DNA from: Bdellovibrio sp.
GTDB taxonomy: Bacteria; Bdellovibrionota; Bdellovibrionia; Bdellovibrionales; Bdellovibrionaceae
Assembly (NCBI GenBank): GCA_043741885.1
Contig: JAYTZS010000172.1
Location: 1-31,260, forward strand
Reading direction: 5' to 3'
DNA length: 31,260 nucleotides
In this document: positions 19,330 to 29,476 of the stretch, in pieces
Numbering within the stretch: the stretch's first letter is position 1
How the letters are laid out: each line of letters begins with the position of its first letter
The notes under the pieces: generated by a model
Database searches by the model: none
What the model was told of the DNA's origin: nothing
The model's input: only the letters and a program-made list of their open reading frames with translations
Program-made: the position numbers and the translations under genes

Positions 19330-19558
19330 GTTCCCCGTAATTTCTAGGGGTATTTGAAGCAAGAGATGGCATCCTGCCAGATGAAGGCTGTGCGCCTCCT
19401 TACCTCGCCATTCGGTCGACGGCCCAGGGTCGATCCGATTTTAACTCAGGATTTAGATTTAAAACTTTCTTTGTCTTTAATTCTCCCGGTCACGATTACC
19501 GGGAGAAGCAGGAGCTCGAGGACAGAGTCCTCGATAGACAGGATGTCTTCTTCCACGA
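19330..19558 (+). repeat. Composite palindromic repeat, copy 1 (module A 19330-19446, module B 19468-19558)
   Basis: Both modules recur in inverted orientation at 28945-29230; multiple internal hairpins. Confidence 0.9.
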
Positions 19559-19630
19559 CTGACAAAAAACTCAACTAAAAGGGGCCGACGGATACCGACT
19601 TCGTGATTGAATGCGAAAGAATGCTTAAAG

Positions 19631-19665
19631 TAAAGAAAGAGCACGATCTACGCGCTCTTTCTTTA
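19631..19665 (-). terminator. Intrinsic terminator downstream of the YaiI/YqxD gene
   Basis: TAAAGAAAGAGC...GCTCTTTCTTTA inverted repeat. On the minus strand, GAGCGCG-TAGAT-CGTGCTC followed by TTTCTTT, 9 nt after the stop. Confidence 0.65.
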
Positions 19666-19673
19666 TCTTGATT

Positions 19674-20150
19674 CTAGATTGAACTTTTTTTCATGCTCAT
19701 TTGAGTCCGCCGAATGGATTGGAGGATCTGGTCTAGTTTCGTTAGAAATTGCGATCGATCGGTTTTCTGCATAGGAGCTGGACCGCCTTTCGCTTCTCCA
19801 GTCTGTCGCAGGTGGGCCATCAATTCTCGGGTGCCCACAGCTTCTCCAATATTCTCTTCAGTCCATTCTTTTCCTTTGGGACTGAGCACTCGCGCTTTCT
19901 TTTTCAGAGCTCGCTCAGCTAATAAAATATCGGTGGTCACAACGACATCATCTAAACCGCATTGCTCAATAATCCAGTCGTCAGCGGAATCAAAATCTCC
20001 AGAAACCACCTGCATTCGTATTCGCTCACTGGATGGAATCTGTATAAATTTATTAGCAACTACGATCACTGAAATTTGATATCGCTCGGCAACTTTGTAA
20101 ATTTCTTCTTTTACTGGGCAACCATCGGCGTCCACATAAATTTCTAACAA
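19674..20150 (-). CDS. YaiI/YqxD family protein (DUF188, PIN-like)
   Basis: [52 protein letters not shown] start at 20150 with a GGTGG RBS. Confidence 0.9.
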
Positions 20151-20235
20151 GTCAACCACCTTAAATCTGACTGGATTTTTGCAGGCCAATCTCTTTCTTG
20201 TACAAGGCGAGCTTATTGAATGCTAGAATTTCTCT

Positions 20236-21153
20236 ATGAGAATTGAAAGTTTAAACGATTTACTAGGGCAGTTTCCTGATATTGATGGCTTCTGGAATTT
20301 TGATGATTTGGTTAAAACTGAAACAACCATTTCGGCGCTTTTACCGAGCCCCTCTGAAACTTGGAGTTCCAAGGATGTCGAAGTTTTAACTCAATTGGGC
20401 CGGGTGCAAAGTCTACAAGGTCATCATGCTTCGGCTCGAGTCACTTTGGCAGAAGCTCAGAAAAAAATCGCCGACTTAGACAGTGCGGCTCGATTGCGAC
20501 CGGAGATTCGATATTTGTTAGAGCAAGGGCGATTGCTCTGTGCGCAAATGACACCATCTAAGGCGCAAAATTATTTCTCTCAAGCTTGGAATTTGTCTGC
20601 TTCAGCGAAAGAAGTTTTCTTTGCTATTGATGCAGCCTTGATGCTTTCGATCAGTCAGCCACCAAAATATCAAAATGAGTGGCTTCAAAAAGCCCTGTCG
20701 TTGGCCGAAGAAACGGTTACAGAGCAAGGTCATCTTTGGTTGGCGCAACTGTACACGATGGACGGATGGCATAAATTTGATTTCCGTTCCTTTGACAAAG
20801 CTCTAGAAAGTTTTGAAAAAGCCCTGGCTCGTCCCCGAGTTCCTGGCGACGATACAAAAAATTTCGTCATCCGTTGGTGCATTGCGCGAACCTTGCGCGC
20901 CCTGGGCCGAATTCAAGAATCCTATGATCTTCAGTATGCCCTTCACACAGAGTTGCTCGAAGTGGGCGGCTCGAATGGCCATGTTTATTTGGAACTTGCC
21001 GAGTGTCAGCAAACCCTCAACCGTTTAGCCGAAGCTAAAACAAATTTCGAATTCGCTTATAAAGAGCTCTCAGCCAATGGTTGGTATACGGATAACAAAG
21101 CATCAGAGCTTGGCCGAATTCAGTATCTTTCCAAGAAGTCGGTTCAATACTAA
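20236..21153 (+). CDS. Tetratricopeptide-repeat protein
   Basis: Repeated TPR-like helices (TQLGRVQSLQG..A...LAEA, LEQGRL, WCIARTLRALGR, YLELAEC...L....A..NFE.AY). Confidence 0.75.
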   Translation: MRIESLNDLLGQFPDIDGFWNFDDLVKTETTISALLPSPSETWSSKDVEVLTQLGRVQSLQGHHASARVTLAEAQKKIADLDSAARLRPEIRYLLEQGRLLCAQMTPSKAQNYFSQAWNLSASAKEVFFAIDAALMLSISQPPKYQNEWLQKALSLAEETVTEQGHLWLAQLYTMDGWHKFDFRSFDKALESFEKALARPRVPGDDTKNFVIRWCIARTLRALGRIQESYDLQYALHTELLEVGGSNGHVYLELAECQQTLNRLAEAKTNFEFAYKELSANGWYTDNKASELGRIQYLSKKSVQY

Positions 21154-21294
21154 TCGGTACTAATCCGATACTGACGAGAGTTTCATTCAGTTGAATGTGG
21201 TATTTCCGAACGATTCTCTGTTGAACCTGCGAGGCAAAAAACCATAATCCTTCCGTGAAATGCAAAGAAGTGCCCCTATGCCCTCTTTTTTATG

Positions 21295-21310
21295 CGGCAA
21301 GCTTTATGCA
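21295..21310 (+). promoter_or_regulatory. Putative sigma54 (-24/-12) promoter
   Basis: CGGCAAGCTTTATGCA = GG-N10-GCA, 28 nt upstream of ATG 21338. Confidence 0.55.
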
Positions 21311-21337
21311 TAATTCATAATGCAGGAGGTACTGGTT

Positions 21338-21592
21338 ATGAATTCACAATTAGAAGCGGCCGCTGCATCTTTTGTAGCACCGAAATTGTTGAGCAAATTT
21401 AGATTTCGCTATTTGGTCTTCGGAGCAGCTGCATATTATGGTTTGAAATACCTGAGCAGCCGTGGTGTTTTCCCTAAACAAACAGGTGCTGCAGTTGATT
21501 TGATCGACAGAGGCATCGATATGGCGAAAAATCAAGTTGGCATTGGTAGCAGCATGTCTGATGTCGCATCCACTTCAATGAGCCGACATTAG
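21338..21592 (+). CDS. Small hypothetical protein (84 aa)
   Basis: AGGAGG RBS before ATG 21338; one short hydrophobic stretch (YLVFGAAAYYGL); followed by a terminator. Confidence 0.75.
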   Translation: MNSQLEAAAASFVAPKLLSKFRFRYLVFGAAAYYGLKYLSSRGVFPKQTGAAVDLIDRGIDMAKNQVGIGSSMSDVASTSMSRH

Positions 21593-21666
21593 AAATCTCT
21601 AGTCTTTGAAAGTGATGCGCTAAATAGCCGCTTGTTCAAAGTCTTGAAATTTTTTAAATAAAGAAG

Positions 21667-21696
21667 AGAGCTGGGCCCTACCTGGCTCTTTTTTTT
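21667..21696 (+). terminator. Intrinsic terminator
   Basis: AGAGCTGGG-CCCTA-CCTGGCTCT followed by a T run; two G-U pairs that work on the + strand only. Confidence 0.65.
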
Positions 21697-21773
21697 CCTT
21701 TATGATCGACGCATGTTTTGTTTGAGTTTCTTCCTTCGGCTCCCGCATAATTAATCCAAAGCGAGAGTAAAAT

Positions 21774-22553
21774 ATGACTGAGAAAAAGAGATGGGTGATC
21801 AAAGCCGGAAGCAAGATGGTTTGCGATGGCGGTCCCCTTTTGATGCGAGGCTGGATGCAGCAAGTAGCTGAGCTCAAACGAAAGCACCATATTGAGGTGA
21901 TTTGGGTGACCTCAGGTGCTATCGCGTGGGCTGTGGAAAGGACTAGATTTAAACAGCCTAAACGCACGCTCCCCCAAAAACAGGCCCTCAGCGCAATTGG
22001 TCAACCGCTGATTATGGACCAATACAATCTCGCACTTCAGGCAACTGATTTGTTAGGAGCTCAAGTTCTGCTCACTTCAGATGATATGAAAGATCGAAGT
22101 CGACGACGCAATTTGCAGAACACATTAAACGAACTGCTGCGTTGGAAAGTGATCCCGCTGCTCAATGAAAATGATGCTGTGGCAACTGAACAAATTCAGT
22201 TTGGAGACAATGATTCACTGGCTTCCCAGGTCGCGGTGATGATGAAGGCGGAACGATTGATTTTAATGACCGATGTTGATGGCCTGTTCGATCAAGATCC
22301 AAAAAAATTTTCTGGCGCAAATCTTATTCAGTATCGTCGTCGAATTGGTGCGGCTGAAATGAAGTTGGCGAATCGCCAAGAAAAATCAAAAGAAGGCACT
22401 GGTGGAATGTACTCAAAACTTTTGGCTGCAGATTTTGCATGTCGTTCTGGAATTGTCACCCATCTAGTTCGAGGAGATTGGCCTAAAAACTTGCTTGAGC
22501 TTGCACGCGGTCGAGCCGTTGGAACTCAGATTGGCGGATCCTTTGGCAAGTGA
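21774..22553 (+). CDS. proB: Glutamate 5-kinase lacking the C-terminal PUA domain
   Basis: VIKAGS, VTSGAI, AIGQP, NENDAV, FGDNDSLA, LMTDVDGL, GTGGMYSKL; 259 aa. Confidence 0.95.
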   Translation: MTEKKRWVIKAGSKMVCDGGPLLMRGWMQQVAELKRKHHIEVIWVTSGAIAWAVERTRFKQPKRTLPQKQALSAIGQPLIMDQYNLALQATDLLGAQVLLTSDDMKDRSRRRNLQNTLNELLRWKVIPLLNENDAVATEQIQFGDNDSLASQVAVMMKAERLILMTDVDGLFDQDPKKFSGANLIQYRRRIGAAEMKLANRQEKSKEGTGGMYSKLLAADFACRSGIVTHLVRGDWPKNLLELARGRAVGTQIGGSFGK

Positions 22554-23814
22554 TGCAAAGTTAGACCCGCAAATAGAAGCTGCCCTCTTAGAACTCCGGC
22601 GCAAAGGCAAGGATCTGAGGAAACTTTCGACAGAGAGAAAAAATAAAATTCTTGGTGATTTGGCAGCTAGCTTAAAAGAACGAGCTGACTTAATCTTGAA
22701 CGCCAATCAAAAAGACTTGCAAAATCTTTCTGCGGATTCGACGCCAGCTTTTCAAGATCGCCTTACCCTCAGTCAATCGAGGTTGGGATCAATGGCCGAA
22801 AGTTTGATCCAAGTCTCGCAACTTCCGGACCCAGTTGGAGAAGTGATTGAGTCAAAAACCTTGAACAATGGCCTCAAGCTGCAAAAAGTACGAGCTCCCT
22901 TGGGAACTTTGCTTCTCATCTTTGAGTCTCGACCCAACGTCATTCTCGAAGCTTTTTCATTGGCCTTCAAGTCTGGAAACTCGATCATTCTTCGTGGTGG
23001 CTCTGATTCCCGCTGGACCAGCGAAGCTCTCTATCAACTGATGTCCGAAGTTCTCTCACAAAATAATTTCGCAAGTTCTAGCTTCTACCCAGTTCAGGAC
23101 TACGACCGAAAGGTTGTCGAAAGTCTTCTTCGGCGAAAAGACCTGATTGATGTGGTCATCCCTCGTGGAGGCGATAAGTTGATTGAATTTGTTCAACGAA
23201 CAGCGCTCATGCCTTTGATTAAAAATGATCGCGGTTTATGCCACACCTATGTCGACGAAGATGCAGATCTGGAAATGGCAGTTCGAATTGTTGCCAATGG
23301 TAAAATCTCTCGTCCGGGAGTTTGCAACTCACTGGAGACAGTTTTGGTGCATAAAAGCTGTGCCGAGTCGTTTCTAAAAATGCTCGACCTGGCCACCGGC
23401 TCATCGAAACTTCAGTGGCGAGTCGATTTGCCAAGTCAGAAATTTCTACCGAACAAGGCCGAAGTTCGTCTGGCTTCGACAACTGACTGGGACACCGAAC
23501 ACTTAGATCTTATCCTCAACTGCAAGCTGGTTGAAAGTTTGGATCAGGCGATGGAGCACATTCAATTGCACGGGTCTCAACACTCGGAAGCGATTGTCAC
23601 TTCTTCTGAAAGCAAAGCACGTCGTTTTCAAGACGAAGTCGATGCGGCTGCAGTTTACTGGAATGCTTCGACTCGATTTACTGACGGCTTTGAATTTGGG
23701 CTTGGCGGAGAATTGGGCATTAGCACTCAGAAATTACATGTTCGCGGGCCGGTGGGCTTAAGAGAATTGACAACGCCTAGGTGGCTTATAGATGGAACCG
23801 GGCAAATTCGCTAA
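22543..23814 (+). CDS. proA: Gamma-glutamyl phosphate reductase
   Basis: FESRPNV, LRGGS, IPRGG, CNSLETVLVH, HSEAIVT, NASTRFTDG.EFGLG.E.GISTQKLH.RGPVGL. Start uncertain; TTG 22543 overlaps the proB end. Confidence 0.95.
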   Translation: MASDAKLDPQIEAALLELRRKGKDLRKLSTERKNKILGDLAASLKERADLILNANQKDLQNLSADSTPAFQDRLTLSQSRLGSMAESLIQVSQLPDPVGEVIESKTLNNGLKLQKVRAPLGTLLLIFESRPNVILEAFSLAFKSGNSIILRGGSDSRWTSEALYQLMSEVLSQNNFASSSFYPVQDYDRKVVESLLRRKDLIDVVIPRGGDKLIEFVQRTALMPLIKNDRGLCHTYVDEDADLEMAVRIVANGKISRPGVCNSLETVLVHKSCAESFLKMLDLATGSSKLQWRVDLPSQKFLPNKAEVRLASTTDWDTEHLDLILNCKLVESLDQAMEHIQLHGSQHSEAIVTSSESKARRFQDEVDAAAVYWNASTRFTDGFEFGLGGELGISTQKLHVRGPVGLRELTTPRWLIDGTGQIR

Positions 23815-23864
23815 ATAGTTGCAGAATAATTAGAGTCATTTCGGTGGCTCTCAAGGAGATCGGA

Positions 23865-24509
23865 ATGGACATTCAGCCTAGAAGATCACCGGCTATTCCA
23901 ATAATTATAGCTCTCAATGTGATCGTGTTTATTTTTTGGCATCTTTCCCAAAATCCATTGGTGATGTTGCAAAATTTCACAGTCAGCTGGGAGGGGCTGA
24001 GTGAAGGTCGTTTTTGGACTTTGCTCACATCCGTTTTTTCACATAATCTTTTGTGGCATCTGTTTCTAAATATGTTTGTTTTGAGAAGTTTCGGCTCTTT
24101 GATGGAAAAAGTTTTAGGGACTCGGACTTTTATTGCTTTTTATTTAGCGGCAGGATTATTTAGTTCTCTTTGTCATGCTGTCGTCTCGAACTGGATTTTG
24201 CAGTCTCCAGAGATCCCAGCTTTGGGAGCTTCCGGCGCAATCAGTGGAGTGATCTTGGTGTTTGCCCTGATTTTTCCCAAAGAACGGATCTGGATTTTCG
24301 GAATCTTGCCGCTTCCTGCACTGTGGGGCGCGCTTGCTTTCATTGGTTTGGACGTCTGGGGATTGGTCGCGCAAGCCGAAGGCGGTGGACTTCCAATCGG
24401 ACATGGCGCCCATATTGGTGGAGCGCTCACTGGGATTGCTTTTTATTTTCTGTCCGTGCGACCTAGACTGCAAAGATCTTTAACTAGAACTACAGCCCCA
24501 GCTTCTTGA
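23865..24509 (+). CDS. Rhomboid family intramembrane serine protease
   Basis: WTLLTSVFSH...HLFLNM, catalytic GASG and AHIGG, about six TMs. ATG 23865 with an AAGGAG RBS. Confidence 0.9.
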   Translation: MDIQPRRSPAIPIIIALNVIVFIFWHLSQNPLVMLQNFTVSWEGLSEGRFWTLLTSVFSHNLLWHLFLNMFVLRSFGSLMEKVLGTRTFIAFYLAAGLFSSLCHAVVSNWILQSPEIPALGASGAISGVILVFALIFPKERIWIFGILPLPALWGALAFIGLDVWGLVAQAEGGGLPIGHGAHIGGALTGIAFYFLSVRPRLQRSLTRTTAPAS

Positions 24510-26616
24510 AAAAAGCGTCGGAGTTTGGTTCTCGTCCTAAAAATTGCCGTAAAAGCTCAATCGCATCCTGCATATTCCCCTGCTCCAAAATGACTTTCCG
24601 GTATTTGGCGCCTTCAGCCGCGTTGGTGAGATCGTCCGCAGGAAACTGCGAAAACATATCTTGAGCGTACACTCCGGACCACAGGTATCCATAATAGCCG
24701 GCATCGTAGCCGCCCATCAAATGCCCAAAGCCCGCAGCAAACTGATTTCCAGCTAAGGGCTCCTGCCCAACGATTTGGCGGTAAAGCTCATTATAGATTT
24801 CAGTCACATTTACTTTTGAATTTTCAGTGTGAATCTTCAAATCGAACAACGAATACAAAAGCTGTTTGGTGTAGTCAGCTCCCTGTTGAAAATTACGGAC
24901 CGCAATCATCTTAGTCAAAAGATCATCGGACAGCTTTTGTTCGGGATGCAAATAATGTCCCGAAACCCGGCTCAAAATTTTTGGATTCCAAACCCAATTT
25001 TCAAGCATTTGTGATGGTGCCTCAACAAAATCTTGTGCCACACTTGCGCCGGACAGACTGGCGTATGGGGCCTTGGTCAAAGTTTGGTGCATGATATGGC
25101 CGAACTCATGAAAGAAGGTTTCTACTTCATCATGAGTTAATAACGAAGGTTTTGTGCCTGATGGTGGAGTGAAGTTTGCGACAATGGATGAAGCAGGCAG
25201 ACTGTAAATTCCTTTGCCTAAAAGACGGCCCGATATCAGAGAAAAGGCCGCTGCGTGACCATACTTTCCTGGACGGGGCACCAAATCAGTGTAGAAATGA
25301 CCGATCAAACGGCAATCACTGGCATCGTGAATTTCGTAAAGTTTCACTCCGTCAGCCCAAACTTTCGCAGTTTTCACTTCGATAAATTTGACTCCAAGCA
25401 ATTGCGAGTAAACATCAAATATACCTGCGACCACAGTGCTCGCTGGGAAATACTCGCGAATCTTTTCGTTATCCAGACTGTAATCTCGTTTTTGCAGTTG
25501 GTTTCGCAGGTATGTCGAATCCCATGGATTCACCGAAGTCGATCCCGGCTCAAATTGTTTTTTGAAATCTAGCAACTGAGCTTGGTCTTGTCGGTTGCGG
25601 ACAATCAACTTGTTTTTCAAGTTCATTAGAAATTTCAAAGCAGTGTCACTGTTTTTGGCCATTTGTGGAGCAATTCGATAATCAGCCCAGTTTTTAAATC
25701 CTATAATGGTAGCAATTTGACTTCGCAAGAAAACAGCTTCTTCGAGCAACTGAGTGTTCGCTGCGCCGCCGCGGTTCAAGTAAGCAATCATCATTTGGTG
25801 ACGAGTCTCTGAAACAGAAACATTCTCCATCAGATCGCCGTAATCTGTACTTTTCGTTGTCACAACAAATTTTCCGTCTGCCGTTTTTTCTAAGCGAGCC
25901 AGAAAATCAGGTTGAGCTCCGCGAAGCTGCTCTAAACTGAAAGTCACTGAAGTGTTGTCTAAATTCAAATTGGTCGAATACTGATTTTCTTTCGTTGATA
26001 GCTGAGATTTTAGGTCCTTAACCTGGGCCAAGGCAGAGTCAGATAACTTCAAACCATTTTGTTCAAAAACTCGCAAAGTTTGTGAAAGCAAACGGCTTTG
26101 CGCTGGAGCGGAGGTTTTTTGACTCGACAAAATATTGTACAAAGGTCGGCGAGTAAAAATATCAACGCTGTACTGCCCAATTTTCTGTTCGCAATCGGAG
26201 GCCTCTGCGCTGACAGCCGTGTCTGTTGAGACATATCCCATAAAAGTCAATGGAGTGGATTCATCTGAAAAATCGGCCAAAATGGTTTCGAACTCAAGCA
26301 AAGTGCTTTTAATATTTTGTTTTTCCGACGGTAGCGCAATCAAAGCGGCCAATCTCTCCTCAGTGTGTGAAATTGCTTTTTCACAAAGAGCGGTTACTTC
26401 ACCAACTCGGTAAGCTGGTCGAATTGGCTCCAGCCCTCCTTGCAACGAGCAAGAGATGGAAGCCTTTGTGCTACCACTCAAAACTGGAGTCGAATTCGGC
26501 TTGAAAATTTGCGAAGATATTTTTGAAGCCTCTTTTGAACTCTGGGTGCAGCTGACCACAAAAGTCGCAAGAAATACCAAGCCAGAAGCGAAAAAAGCCA
26601 TTTTTTGCGCAGACAT
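24490..26616 (-). CDS. M3A family metallopeptidase (thimet oligopeptidase-like) with lipoprotein signal
   Basis: FFHEFGHIMH zinc motif, DFVEAPSQMLENW, FGHLMGGYDAGYYGYLWS, RPGKYGHAA; N-terminal lipobox FVVSC. Confidence 0.9.
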   Translation of the reverse strand: MSAQKMAFFASGLVFLATFVVSCTQSSKEASKISSQIFKPNSTPVLSGSTKASISCSLQGGLEPIRPAYRVGEVTALCEKAISHTEERLAALIALPSEKQNIKSTLLEFETILADFSDESTPLTFMGYVSTDTAVSAEASDCEQKIGQYSVDIFTRRPLYNILSSQKTSAPAQSRLLSQTLRVFEQNGLKLSDSALAQVKDLKSQLSTKENQYSTNLNLDNTSVTFSLEQLRGAQPDFLARLEKTADGKFVVTTKSTDYGDLMENVSVSETRHQMMIAYLNRGGAANTQLLEEAVFLRSQIATIIGFKNWADYRIAPQMAKNSDTALKFLMNLKNKLIVRNRQDQAQLLDFKKQFEPGSTSVNPWDSTYLRNQLQKRDYSLDNEKIREYFPASTVVAGIFDVYSQLLGVKFIEVKTAKVWADGVKLYEIHDASDCRLIGHFYTDLVPRPGKYGHAAAFSLISGRLLGKGIYSLPASSIVANFTPPSGTKPSLLTHDEVETFFHEFGHIMHQTLTKAPYASLSGASVAQDFVEAPSQMLENWVWNPKILSRVSGHYLHPEQKLSDDLLTKMIAVRNFQQGADYTKQLLYSLFDLKIHTENSKVNVTEIYNELYRQIVGQEPLAGNQFAAGFGHLMGGYDAGYYGYLWSGVYAQDMFSQFPADDLTNAAEGAKYRKVILEQGNMQDAIELLRQFLGREPNSDAFFKKLGL

Positions 26617-26795
26617 TTGCACTGAGACCTCGCGATCGATTAGAAATTTTGACACCACCATCAAGGATGGAAAGCTCTGAGACTTCCACTAGAGCAAAGC
26701 ATGTGCCGTTACATGCTTTGTTATTCGAAGGAGTTTGATTGTCAATTCAAAGGACAGTTCCTAAACTATATAGAGAAATATTTTGAGGACTCTTT

Positions 26796-27656
26796 ATGGA
26801 AATCAGCCCAGCCGACCAAATTTTTATCGATCAAGCTTCGGATTTTTTTCAGAATCCAGGGCCCCTCGTGCAAAGCCTCAACTGGATCGGCAAGCCAGTA
26901 GAAAAGCTAGCTGAACGTTTGCCTGAAAAGGTACGGAATTTGATTACATCTGCCACTCAAAAAGCAATTGGAAAGGCTTTGGTAGCGGCCGTCCAAAGCT
27001 TCCCACAAAGCCATTCGCTCGAAGCGGCATTCCTACCAAGTGACGGCGAGCAGATCGAAAAATCTTCTCTTCTGTCTTCGTGGGCCCACAAAGCCTCAAC
27101 CACTTTCACTGGCGCAGTTAGCGGTTTTTTTGGAATTGCCGCACTTCCTGTCGAGCTTCCAATCACAACTGTTTTGATCCTTCGAGGAATTCTCGATCAG
27201 GCTCGGCTTTATGGCGAAGATGTGCAGGATTTAGAAACTCGAATGGAGTGCCTCATGGTTTTTGCTCTTGGGACAAACAACTCTAAAGAAGACTCGATGG
27301 AGTCGAGCTATTTCACAGCTAGGGCGGCGCATGCCCAGGCTGTTCGCCAAGCGGCCCAGTACATCACCAAGCTGTCCAGCAAAGAATTGGTTGAGGCTCT
27401 AGAAAGAGGATCTGCTCCGGCCGTGCTTCGCTTGATCGCGCAGATTGCTCAGGCCTTTGAAATTCGAGTGACACAGAAAATGGTCGCTGACGTTGTGCCG
27501 ATTTTAGGTGCCGTCACTGGAGGCGCCGTGAACTTTGCCTTCACTGATTTTTATTGCCGGGCCGCTCGATTTCACTTTGGCGTCCGAGCCTTAGAGAAAA
27601 AATACGGAATTGATTCGATTCAAGATCTAATGAAACAAAAAATGCAGCTGCATTGA
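26796..27656 (+). CDS. EcsC family protein
   Basis: GAVSGFFG..ALPVELP.TT, ECLMVFALG, SYF..R, VPILGAVTGGAVN..F, FHFGVRALEKKYG. Confidence 0.85.
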   Translation: MEISPADQIFIDQASDFFQNPGPLVQSLNWIGKPVEKLAERLPEKVRNLITSATQKAIGKALVAAVQSFPQSHSLEAAFLPSDGEQIEKSSLLSSWAHKASTTFTGAVSGFFGIAALPVELPITTVLILRGILDQARLYGEDVQDLETRMECLMVFALGTNNSKEDSMESSYFTARAAHAQAVRQAAQYITKLSSKELVEALERGSAPAVLRLIAQIAQAFEIRVTQKMVADVVPILGAVTGGAVNFAFTDFYCRAARFHFGVRALEKKYGIDSIQDLMKQKMQLH

Positions 27657-27688
27657 GATATCTAACCTTAACCTACACCTTAACCGGA

Positions 27689-28207
27689 TCAATTCGGGTC
27701 GTTTGAGAAGGCTCTGTCCTTGATAATCCGGTCTGGAAGCACATGAGCGGGAATCGCCGTCCCACTCCAGCTGAGATTTTGGTAGGAACCCATTCTCACT
27801 TTGACTGAGCTCACTTGGACATCAATGATTGAATTAAAATTTTCTTTAGCTGCTAAGAAAGCCAATCGCAAAATTGTTTCATCTCGGTCGGAACAGGCTT
27901 CAACTTTGACCGGATCGACAAATCGTTTGATCAGCCGAGTCTCTTTGCTTTGTTTTTTGTAGTAAACATCAATTTGTTTTGCTTTTAACATGGTCTGTTT
28001 GTAGGCGGCAAGCTCAGGCTCTACCTTTTCATTAAAGCATGGGGGGCAATAGGTCGAATGAGTCAATTCATTTGGAACTTCGGGAAGGAAGGAAAAAGTT
28101 TCTTCCTCGACAAATTGAGCACAGTATTTACAAACGGCGCTATGACAAAAACCGCATTGTAAAGTCGGCTTTGGTTTAAAACATGAGATACAGACTGACT
28201 TTTCCAT
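27689..28207 (-). CDS. Hypothetical protein: 8-Cys zinc finger fused to a YbjQ/UPF0145-like domain
   Basis: CISC-x8-CGFC-x4-CKYC-x24-CPPC; C-terminal RDETILRLAFLAAKENFNSIIDV...SGTAI. Confidence 0.75.
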   Translation of the reverse strand: MEKSVCISCFKPKPTLQCGFCHSAVCKYCAQFVEEETFSFLPEVPNELTHSTYCPPCFNEKVEPELAAYKQTMLKAKQIDVYYKKQSKETRLIKRFVDPVKVEACSDRDETILRLAFLAAKENFNSIIDVQVSSVKVRMGSYQNLSWSGTAIPAHVLPDRIIKDRAFSNDPN

Positions 28208-28363
28208 AAGATTGGGATAACATATCTTCGGCCCAGAGAGGACTTCGAATCTTGGTTCTTTGCAATTCTTTCAGTTCCTGGACTCCCCGACCAACCGCCT
28301 GAAAACCCTCTGTTTTGGCGGCAATTTTCTGTCAAACTTCAGAGCCCGTGCTAACCTAACAGG

Positions 28364-28915
28364 GTGACAAAGCAGACACTTCCCTTTCTCAGTCTCTTTC
28401 TTTTTACTTTGTGCCTTTCTGCCTCCGTTCAGGCTAGCTATTTTCTTGGCTTCAGCGGCTCTCATTTGAATCTCGAGTACAAGAGCGTTCGCACAGGGAC
28501 TTTCGAAGCAGAGACAAAAGGTTATATTGAGCTTGCCGGCTTTGGTGGAGGCTACAGCACGATGGCTCCCGGCGCCGGCGGTTATGAGTTAGGACTTGGA
28601 TTTTTAGGCACCAATGCAATCAATGTTGAGCCGAAAACAGATTGGCATACCACCTGGTTCTACCGGCTGTCAGGAAAAGTAAACTACACTTTTTCATTTG
28701 GTCTGTTTTTCACAACTGGGGCTGATGTGCTTGTTTCTTTCTACCAAGATGGAGAAAGTCACTATCTGGGAGTCGGCGCTTTGCTGGGAATTGGTTACCG
28801 AATTGACGAACATTCGTCAGTTTCTTTGAGCAACGTCAACAGTTCAATTCTGTTTGCCGGTGACAACTATCGAGCTTTGCGTGGGCAGACATTGGACTTG
28901 ATCTACTCTTTTTAG
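28364..28915 (+). CDS. Small outer-membrane beta-barrel protein
   Basis: Signal peptide ending VQA, about eight amphipathic strands, C-terminal beta-signal LDLIYSF. Confidence 0.7.
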   Translation: MTKQTLPFLSLFLFTLCLSASVQASYFLGFSGSHLNLEYKSVRTGTFEAETKGYIELAGFGGGYSTMAPGAGGYELGLGFLGTNAINVEPKTDWHTTWFYRLSGKVNYTFSFGLFFTTGADVLVSFYQDGESHYLGVGALLGIGYRIDEHSSVSLSNVNSSILFAGDNYRALRGQTLDLIYSF

Positions 28916-28944
28916 AACTTAGATTTTTAATTGGTATTGATTGT

Positions 28945-29230
28945 TCGTGGAAGAAGACATCCTGTCTATCGAGGACTCTGTCCTCGAGCTCCTGCTTCTC
29001 CCGGTCATCGTGACCGGGAGACTTAAAGACAAAGAGAATTTGTGATGCGTTGTTTGAGATGCTAAGAAAATTTGAGATAGAACGAAAAGTTGAGAACGTA
29101 AGAAAAGCTTGAATTTAAGATCGGATCGACCCTGGATGGTCGACCGAATGCTGAGATATGGAGACGCACAGCCTCCATCTGGCAGGATGCCACCTCTTGC
29201 CTCAGATACCTCTAGAAATTACGGGAGAAC
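28945..29230 (-). repeat. Composite palindromic repeat, copy 2 (module A 29230-29115, module B 29035-28945)
   Basis: Reverse complement matches 19330-19558: module B 89/91 identical, module A about 14 substitutions plus 1 indel in about 116 nt (hand count). The spacer is longer than in copy 1. Confidence 0.9.
29053..29106. repeat. Three degenerate 18-bp tandem repeats inside the copy 2 spacer
   Basis: TTTGAGATGCTAAGAAAA / TTTGAGATAGAACGAAAA / GTTGAGAACGTAAGAAAA. Confidence 0.55.
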
Positions 29231-29233
29231 CAT

Positions 29234-29476
29234 TCAGCTACCTGAATTTTTGAGTGGGGTAAAAAGTGATTCCAATCCGTTGAGCTTGATCTCATAAAGC
29301 TGAGTTAATAAACGTCCCAACTCCCCTTCTGGAAAACCCTGAGTGTAAAACCAAACAACATAGGGTTCAGGCAAATCAATCAGAACCCAGCCTTTGAATT
29401 TTCCAAATGGCATCTGCATATTGGCAATCTTCACGAGATCAGACAAATTGGGGATGGGCTGATTTGGCAAGCTCAA
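29234..29476 (-). CDS. DUF3820 family protein
   Basis: MPFGKFKG..LIDLPEPYVVWF..QGFPEGELG.LL..LYEIKLNGLE.L. The TTG start overlaps the upstream TGA (TTGA). Confidence 0.9.
   Translation of the reverse strand: MSLPNQPIPNLSDLVKIANMQMPFGKFKGWVLIDLPEPYVVWFYTQGFPEGELGRLLTQLYEIKLNGLESLFTPLKNSGS

Follow-up and report, generated by a model that had tools for sequence, protein, structure and literature searches.

What is known of REP and REPIN biology comes almost wholly from Proteobacteria, where the repeat units are short and carry a GTAG tag. The BOX element of Streptococcus pneumoniae, with the order boxA-boxB(n)-boxC, is intergenic, folds strongly, and has no transposase of its own. The transposase TnpA of IS608 recognizes hairpins in the subterminal DNA of a single strand, and its activity leaves no duplication. 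Target duplications are, to our knowledge, not expected for Y1 enzymes of the IS200/IS605 type, and we know of no description of movement with terminal inverted repeats (TIRs) and 9-bp target duplications for HUH/Y1 enzymes. Here we analyze a hairpin-rich repeat element that is present in two copies on a 31,260-nt stretch of Bdellovibrio sp. DNA (the window; contig C172), and we compare it with two described systems: the REP, REPIN, and BIME repeats with their RAYT (TnpA-REP) enzymes in Proteobacteria (Nunvar 2010, PMC2817692; Bertels and Rainey 2011, PMC3116915) and the TIRtron/TIRYT elements (Di Nocera et al. 2013, PMC3733652; subclass 2.1 in Quentin et al. 2018, PMC6006769). The TIRtron/TIRYT paper (PMC3733652) leaves target duplications unmentioned. 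The source assembly (G000) is a 2.9-Mb metagenome-assembled genome (MAG) of 461 contigs, 81% complete and with 45% G+C; its named relatives assign it to the Pseudobdellovibrionaceae (Bdellovibrionales). We are close to certain that the element is a doublet of a structured repeat that occurs across the family Pseudobdellovibrionaceae.

Architecture of the Element

The initial annotation of the window had described a two-copy inverted element composed of two different modules, A and B. Both an inverted-repeat search of the window and a BLAST self-comparison of the whole genome recovered the two copies, which lie 9.4 kb apart. The search returned two pairs of inverted arms (19334-19444 with 29115-29225, 111 nt, 87%; 19462-19558 with 28945-29041, 97 nt, 96%), and the self-comparison left positions 19330-19589 and 28921-29230 as the sole repeat islands in the window. 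The hairpins that had been named at the outset are all present in the window copies.

We aligned 53 module-B-like units from other genomes and built from them a covariance model, R2. The unit is 93 nt long and forms three hairpins of 11, 8, and 5 bp (hairpins 1, 2, and 3). Its constant features are a CA-CGA-TG loop in hairpin 1, an AGCnGGAG linker, the CAGGATG of hairpin 3, and a CCACGA tail. The R2 consensus contains no GTAG, and hairpin 1 is preceded by uUaGg. A GTAG/GTGG tag of the REP kind, suggested earlier for this element, is not consistently present; the GTGG that had been pointed out lies at differing distances in modules A and B. Trained without module A, R2 aligns all three of its hairpins on the opposite strand in both window copies. 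This full-length match makes the element a head-to-head inverted doublet of one unit, and module A is thus a diverged module B unit on the opposite strand rather than half of a composite of two different modules. In folds of the element, an invariant 9-bp long-range pairing joins the two halves; this stem forms between the hairpin 3 sequences of the two opposed units.

The orientation of the units is strict. The adjacent unit pairs listed for G006 and G003 all read (-) then (+) (14 of 14, with none in the order (+,-)), and at least 12 further adjacent pairs, found in G047, G072, G079, and G007, are all head-to-head. Among the full copies of the source genome, the number of 18-nt tandem units in the spacer ranges from 0 to 2.8, and the copy on contig C80 has the same array as window copy 2. 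Forms consisting of hairpin 1 only were found in relatives, none in the source genome.

Dispersal in the Source Genome

BLAST and nhmmer searches located about 12 loci in the source genome, all of them intergenic or at gene ends, so that the window copies are not the only two, a possibility that the initial annotation had allowed for. The dispersed, extragenic, multi-hairpin family with REPIN/BIME-like organization that it had proposed is borne out by copies on at least eight other contigs. Seven copies are full (two on C172 and one each on C90, C454, C429, C213, and C80), and a single copy, on C367, is interrupted. Two loci retain module B only: C55 breaks within the hairpin 1 loop, and C129 lies at the edge of its contig. 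C50 and C68 hold A-type relics, the C50 relic being a single A-type unit (R2, E 1e-9). Module A, spacer, and module B follow in the same order in all full copies. The doublet, ~260-310 nt long, is found at no fewer than eight unrelated loci whose flanks are unrelated, and six of eight copies begin 1-60 nt past, or overlapping, the stop of a same-strand open reading frame (ORF). Variable columns within the same copies number 7 of 71 in the module B core and 28 of 90 in module A (Fisher p = 0.001). No covariation was found among the seven copies of the source genome, because they are too similar, and their changes mostly disrupt pairs.

In the 5'-truncated copy on C55 (C55:2603-2694) the first position falls precisely within the CGA loop of hairpin 1, and the cassette that interrupts the C367 copy entered the same hairpin; breakage or joining may occur preferentially in the region of this loop. 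Loose ends of metagenome contigs match other doublet copies and one copy not in the MAG. One such contig (runs X1 and X2; loose end at window position 29201) joins inner module A to sequence on no MAG contig, and at least one further doublet copy is therefore in the sample and missing from the assembly.

We also considered whether modules A and B could be the two termini of a longer parent. This was rejected, as the C367 copy is split by the nested insertion of a Y1 cassette that has TIRs and a 9-bp duplication of its own, and C68 and C50 are relics beside ordinary genes. A small peptide encoded by module B was discarded on the ground that the frames differ between copies.

Distribution in the Pseudobdellovibrionaceae

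A BLAST search of 40 relatives found no copy outside the source genome, and exact-core scans of public genome and metagenome collections gave no match outside it either. These negatives were misleading because the sequence of the unit has diverged while its structure has been kept. A first covariance model of module B gave significant multi-copy matches in 23 of 120 other family genomes; 40 of these matches were retrieved for the alignment of units, and R2 places the unit in 35 of the 120, representing 18 of the 41 genera sampled. The element is thus not species-specific, and its unit is not confined to the source organism. Genomes of the same genus contain 33 (G003), 60 (G006), and at least 24 units (G007). 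Stem sequences vary between species and are alike among the copies within one genome, which is a signature of within-genome amplification. The practical lesson is that sequence searches made the element seem species-specific, and a structure-aware model exposed the family.

Gain and Loss at Orthologous Sites

The same-genus genome G002 keeps the gene order around window copy 1, and there the stop codons of the two convergent genes overlap. The locus thus comprises 373 bp of intergenic sequence in the source genome versus none in G002, and copy 1 has the character of an insertion. A second site, the rpsG-fusA spacer, could be followed within the genus g3, where it measures 21-46 nt (typically ~25 nt) and is free of units in most species. 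It contains one unit in G122 and in G124, a head-to-head doublet in G148, and in G136 no unit and 12 nt of filler, with flanks 91-95% identical to those of G124. Helix 2 of the orthologous G122 and G124 units has changed in a compensatory manner at two pairs. A ~125-nt segment of G122 that includes the unit has an 8-bp direct repeat (AAGCGCAC) on either side, a single case. The left junctions of the doublet copies have no common tetranucleotide.

Maintenance of the Stems

In the alignment of the 53 units, 91.8% of cells are standard pairs; shuffling the columns lowers this share to 68%, and sliding the partners lowers it to ~41%. Compensatory changes were found for 11 of 11 pairs in helix 1, 7 of 8 in helix 2, and 3 of 4 in helix 3. 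The paired positions comprise 1001 Watson-Crick combinations, 22 G·U, and 23 A·C. Structures selected in RNA tolerate G·U much better than A·C, and the equal counts therefore suggest that it is in the DNA that complementarity is maintained. Units occur on either strand relative to their neighbors, and those in the rpsG-fusA (str operon) and infC-rpmI clusters are antisense. The element folds into structures more stable than those of shuffled sequence (z -2.5 to -3.8). We found no convincing promoter or intrinsic terminator inside it, and nothing in the window reached a gathering score in Rfam 15. A search at E <= 10 gave hits at chance level only (E 1-8) for the element, which accordingly matches no family there and, as had been anticipated, is undescribed in that collection.

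Y1/HUH Genes of the Source Genome

The statement that no transposase is in view is correct for the window but not for the genome, which contains more than 30 Y1/HUH genes. A search for such genes flanked by the units, proposed in the initial annotation, found the genes in abundance but none flanked in the REP-RAYT fashion. More than 30 of the Y1 genes are intact and of the TIRYT type (73-95% identity), and the HUH histidines and a Tyr...Asn motif are invariant in their proteins, whose closest solved relative is IS608 TnpA (E 1.3e-6). The cassettes, ~1.35-1.7 kb long, encode only this 170-aa protein, and gene-less derivatives measure 147-480 bp; cassettes and derivatives are bounded by inverted (CCC/GGA)TCTTTCT-N7-GTGGGT. 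Direct repeats of 8-9 bp, varied in sequence, border these elements (among 30 candidate pairs, 4 perfect and 4 matching at 8/9), and several more flank pairs match after a one-base shift. These cassettes fit the published TIRtron/TIRYT kind (PMC3733652, PMC6006769).

One of the cassettes, 1,448 bp long, splits the C367 doublet inside hairpin 1 of module B; its 170-aa protein scores 28.9 bits against Pfam Y1_Tnp (cut-off 23). The doublet has neither the ends of the cassette nor a duplication, and C367 therefore represents a nested insertion, not a REP-RAYT arrangement. The doublet and its nested cassette, ~1.7 kb in all, lie antisense between infC and rpmI (region C367:3670-6603; L013 = C367:3000-8458), in a thrS-infC-rpmI-rplT cluster that is normally tightly spaced.

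The link between the unit and a Y1 enzyme is suggestive only. In G072, B-like units or units reduced to hairpin 1 are located at distances of 70-400 nt from four of five TIRYT paralogs, two of which (L127 and L128) have a unit on both sides of the Y1 gene. All nine genomes with at least 10 units carry this Y1 family. Module A shares a ~40-nt core with a segment, module X, that is found in some Y1 left ends (E 0.005-0.01). A profile of module X matches five doublets at the same positions (best E 0.005), and the C50 relic matches both the A and the X profiles at about 1e-7. Module X itself is a ~90-150-nt optional left-end segment of many Y1 cassettes, mosaic with other modules, and the core that it has in common with module A reads TTCGGT...CCAGGGT.GATCCG. 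We did not retain module X as a decayed unit, since the similarity is in sequence only and R2 does not recognize it.

Other enzymes were considered as well. Two classic RAYT-like Y1 genes (C69:3-596, L125; C107:1378-2022, L124; motifs NHFHL ... YKYxYRNP) have two to three homologs in each of five relatives. They were rejected as the unit-flanked enzyme, as no recognizable unit flanks them at C69 or C107 or at nine loci of five other genomes. Searches of the 81%-complete assembly recovered no reverse transcriptase, IS110, or TnpB, and in the search for IS91/Y2 the control gave no match anywhere. The few DDE genes of the source genome are single-copy, and their ends are unrelated to the doublet. 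A TnpB/IS605 right end or omega-RNA downstream of a ~400-aa ORF was dismissed, the ORFs upstream of the copies being unrelated and not TnpB and the assembly having yielded no TnpB. The element likewise does not fit a TnpB/IscB omega-RNA or an IS110 bridge RNA, neither a TnpB nor an IS110 domain having been found in the 81%-complete assembly.

Positions and Neighbors

Both window copies begin just past a same-strand stop codon (30 nt for copy 1, 3 nt for copy 2) and are located between convergent ORFs, as initially annotated. The coordinates of the copies, their units, and their neighbors are compiled in Table I, together with the loci in other contigs and genomes discussed above. A perfect 11-bp hairpin (AAAGAAAGAGC ... 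GCTCTTTCTTT) occupies window positions 19632-19664, between copy 1 and the stop codon of the DUF188 gene. It lies outside the repeat, resembles a bidirectional terminator, and is missing in G002, whose genes overlap.

Table I. Coordinates of the doublet copies, their neighbors, and related loci (window positions unless a contig is named)
Feature	Location	Strand	Support
Doublet copy 1, short form without 18-nt spacer repeats	19330..19589	+	Limits of self-BLAST island; alignment of 7 full copies
Copy 1 left unit (module A), diverged three-hairpin unit	19349..19446	-	R2 full length, 17.1 bits, E 2.6e-4
Copy 1 right unit (module B)	19474..19566	+	R2 97.5 bits, E 9e-34; covariation across genomes
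Copy 1 module B, parts	Hairpin 1 19482-19506; hairpin 2 19516-19534; hairpin 3 19536-19548; then CCACGA tail		
Doublet copy 2, long form	28921..29230	-	Island limits; alignment
Copy 2 left unit (module A), opposite strand to its own module B	29113..29210	+	R2 full length, 22.4 bits, E 2.8e-6
Copy 2 spacer, 18-nt tandem units, 2.7 copies	29063..29112	-	Tandem Repeats Finder, period 18, score 56
Copy 2 right unit (module B), hairpin 1 perfect	28937..29029	-	R2 106.6 bits, E 4e-37
ORF upstream of copy 1, same strand, 394 aa	18116..19300	+	No Pfam hit
DUF188 (YaiI/YqxD) gene downstream of copy 1, convergent	19674..20189	-	Pfam PF02639, E 2.9e-46
QSregVF_b ORF upstream of copy 2, same strand	29234..29476	-	Pfam PF12843, E 6.8e-30
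ORF downstream of copy 2, convergent, 183 aa	28364..28915	+	No Pfam hit
rpsG-fusA locus, G122 (L084)	G122:C2:2286980-2287075		
rpsG-fusA locus, G124 (L090)	G124:C1:2551153-2551245		
rpsG-fusA locus, G148 (L156)	G148:C23:3600-3960		
rpsG-fusA locus, G136 (L155)	G136:C3:440180-440400		
Y1 cassette inside the C367 doublet, G000	C367:4329-5776		
Further example Y1 cassette or derivative loci, G000	C321:5459-5935; C406:741-1153; C422:3930-4076		
Module X loci	C185:4367-4524; C359; C183:295-442; C306; about 13 more		

Explanations for the Doublets

The unit is a DNA repeat of old standing that is dispersed throughout the family Pseudobdellovibrionaceae. As the best explanation overall we favor, with some confidence, a REPIN-like extragenic inverted doublet that acts as folded DNA and is mobilized in trans, probably by a Y1/HUH enzyme. 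In the source genome the whole doublet has been copied as one piece to the eight or more unrelated intergenic sites, usually just past a stop codon. It may act as folded single-stranded or cruciform DNA, with the constant loops being read by a protein, and would then spread in trans as a non-autonomous element. The likeliest enzyme would be one of the HUH/Y1 proteins of the TIRYT or RAYT type that are abundant in these genomes; it is a candidate, and its cutting chemistry is likewise putative. A more far-reaching proposal is that units and doublets constitute an ancient, unrecognized REPIN-type replicator of Bdellovibrionota, whose loops are read in trans by a Y1/HUH enzyme without a bracketed gene, next to a co-resident TIRYT family that moves with TIRs and 9-bp duplications. 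We put this proposal forward tentatively, and we have more doubt than confidence in it as a whole.

Several results speak against mobilization of folded DNA by a Y1/HUH enzyme. The seven doublet copies show no target-site duplication of at least 7 bp and no crisp ends, and no empty-site allele was found in three sediment metagenomes, where assembled contigs were searched and contigs break at the repeat. No Y1 gene is flanked by units in the source genome, all units in the same-genus genomes G006 and G003 are more than 5 kb from any Y1 gene, and module X is not recognized structurally by R2. TIRYT-type Y1 genes occur in 26 of 35 unit-positive and 54 of 85 unit-negative genomes, a difference that is not significant among relatives that are not independent, and the complete genomes G127 and G133 contain seven units each and no TIRYT-type Y1 gene. 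Within the same copies, conservation is 3-4 times higher in module B than in module A, and a function at the level of the host could account for this. Finally, strong covariation with constant loops is likewise expected of a functional RNA.

We thus weighed the possibility that the unit is a structured non-coding RNA, either a multi-copy small RNA or a cis-acting element of 3'-untranslated or leader regions, whose hairpins are kept for RNA function. Compensatory covariation in the presence of a constant linker and loops is what such an RNA should display, and it is compatible with the retention of an orthologous rpsG-fusA unit with compensatory change, with the location of most source-genome copies (six of eight) 1-60 nt past a same-strand stop, with the tighter constraint on module B than on module A, and with a fold stability above that of shuffled sequence (z -2.5 to -3.8). 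However, G·U does not outnumber A·C in paired positions (22 versus 23), unlike in RNA families, and doublet partners are always on opposite strands. It is these two findings that disfavor the non-coding RNA named as an alternative in the initial annotation. In addition, units stand on either strand with respect to their neighbors and are antisense in the str operon and at infC-rpmI, the element has no promoter, intrinsic terminator, or significant Rfam match, and 10-60 copies with presence and absence at orthologous sites suit a repeat better than a gene. We therefore consider an RNA origin unlikely. Rather less probable, in our judgment, are immobile, vertically inherited DNA sites bound by a protein in the manner of BIMEs, for example by nucleoid or topology factors, with copies arising through recombination or gene conversion. 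Retention at an orthologous site with compensatory change would be expected of such sites, gene conversion could explain why module B is near-invariant among copies, most genomes lack a linked cognate transposase, and G127 and G133, both complete, have units without a TIRYT-type Y1 gene. What argues against immobility is the placement of a ~260-310-nt doublet at eight or more unrelated loci with unrelated flanks, the empty site in G002, gain and loss inside the genus g3, and stems that differ between species and are alike within a genome.

An ordinary miniature inverted-repeat transposable element (MITE), that is, a deletion derivative of a DDE-type insertion sequence (IS) moved via TIRs with target-site duplication, appears very improbable. 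The invariant 9-bp long-range pairing does resemble a subterminal inverted repeat, and other MITE-like elements with TIRs and 9-bp duplications are abundant in the genome. Yet the apparent inverted repeat is hairpin 3 of two opposed units, the doublet has no terminal TIRs, no duplication of at least 7 bp, no parent element, and not the TCTTTCT-N7-GTGGGT ends of the other family, and the few DDE genes are single-copy with unrelated ends. A local duplication or chance palindrome cluster confined to the window, for which only the 9.4-kb spacing of the two copies speaks, retains practically no credibility, as it is already refuted by the copies on at least eight other contigs and the units in 35 other genomes.

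Compared with the short, GTAG-tagged units of Proteobacteria, the present unit is much larger and composite, with a structure conserved over at least 18 genera of predatory Bdellovibrio-like bacteria, a strict head-to-head rule, and no bracketed transposase. Complete genomes with 3-60 copies offer a clean comparative system for asking which enzyme mobilizes such repeats and what selection acts on in them. Separate study is merited by the co-resident Y1 elements, with their TIRs and their 9-bp duplications.

Comparison with Known Systems

Our search of the literature retrieved no description of such repeats in Bdellovibrio-like bacteria. The element is not a classical REP/RAYT family, a TIRYT end repeat, a DDE-type MITE, or a known RNA family. 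It differs from DDE MITEs in having no terminal TIRs and, in seven copies, no duplication of at least 7 bp at consistent offsets. With IS200/IS605 elements and their palindrome-associated (PATE) derivatives it shares the apparent lack of a target duplication, but there is no conserved left-junction tetranucleotide, the two sets of hairpins are inverted with respect to each other and do not share a strand, and no parent IS with doublet ends was found. BOX is similar by analogy only, in that two pairing end modules enclose a variable number of short tandem units; there is no sequence relation, and the end modules of our element are inverted copies of one unit that also exists singly.

The Y1 genes of the source genome resemble those of the TIRtron/TIRYT system, being bracketed by inverted repeats and not by REPs, with gene-less copies of the repeats dispersed in the genome. 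The doublet is unlike a TIRYT end repeat; it lacks TCTTTCT-N7-GTGGGT, and it shows no duplication, whereas the Y1 cassettes make duplications of 8-9 bp. REP systems of Proteobacteria have a single palindrome of 20-40 nt as their unit, in contrast to the 93 nt and three hairpins found here in a host of the phylum Bdellovibrionota. The present unit also has no GTAG (or CGTC) tag and occurs in tens of copies (about 12 in the source genome, 33-60 in G003 and G006), not hundreds. No single-copy RAYT is bracketed by units, bracketing being seen only at the TIRYT-type paralogs of G072, and the spacer, unlike that of a REPIN, holds 18-nt tandem repeats. In other respects the correspondence with REP/REPIN is close: the repeats are extragenic, dispersed, and palindromic and lie at gene ends; they coexist with HUH/Y1 genes; copies are alike within a genome, and the repeat type differs between species; and the copied entity is the inverted doublet, found at eight or more loci here and, among relatives, in at least 26 adjacent pairs that are all head-to-head.

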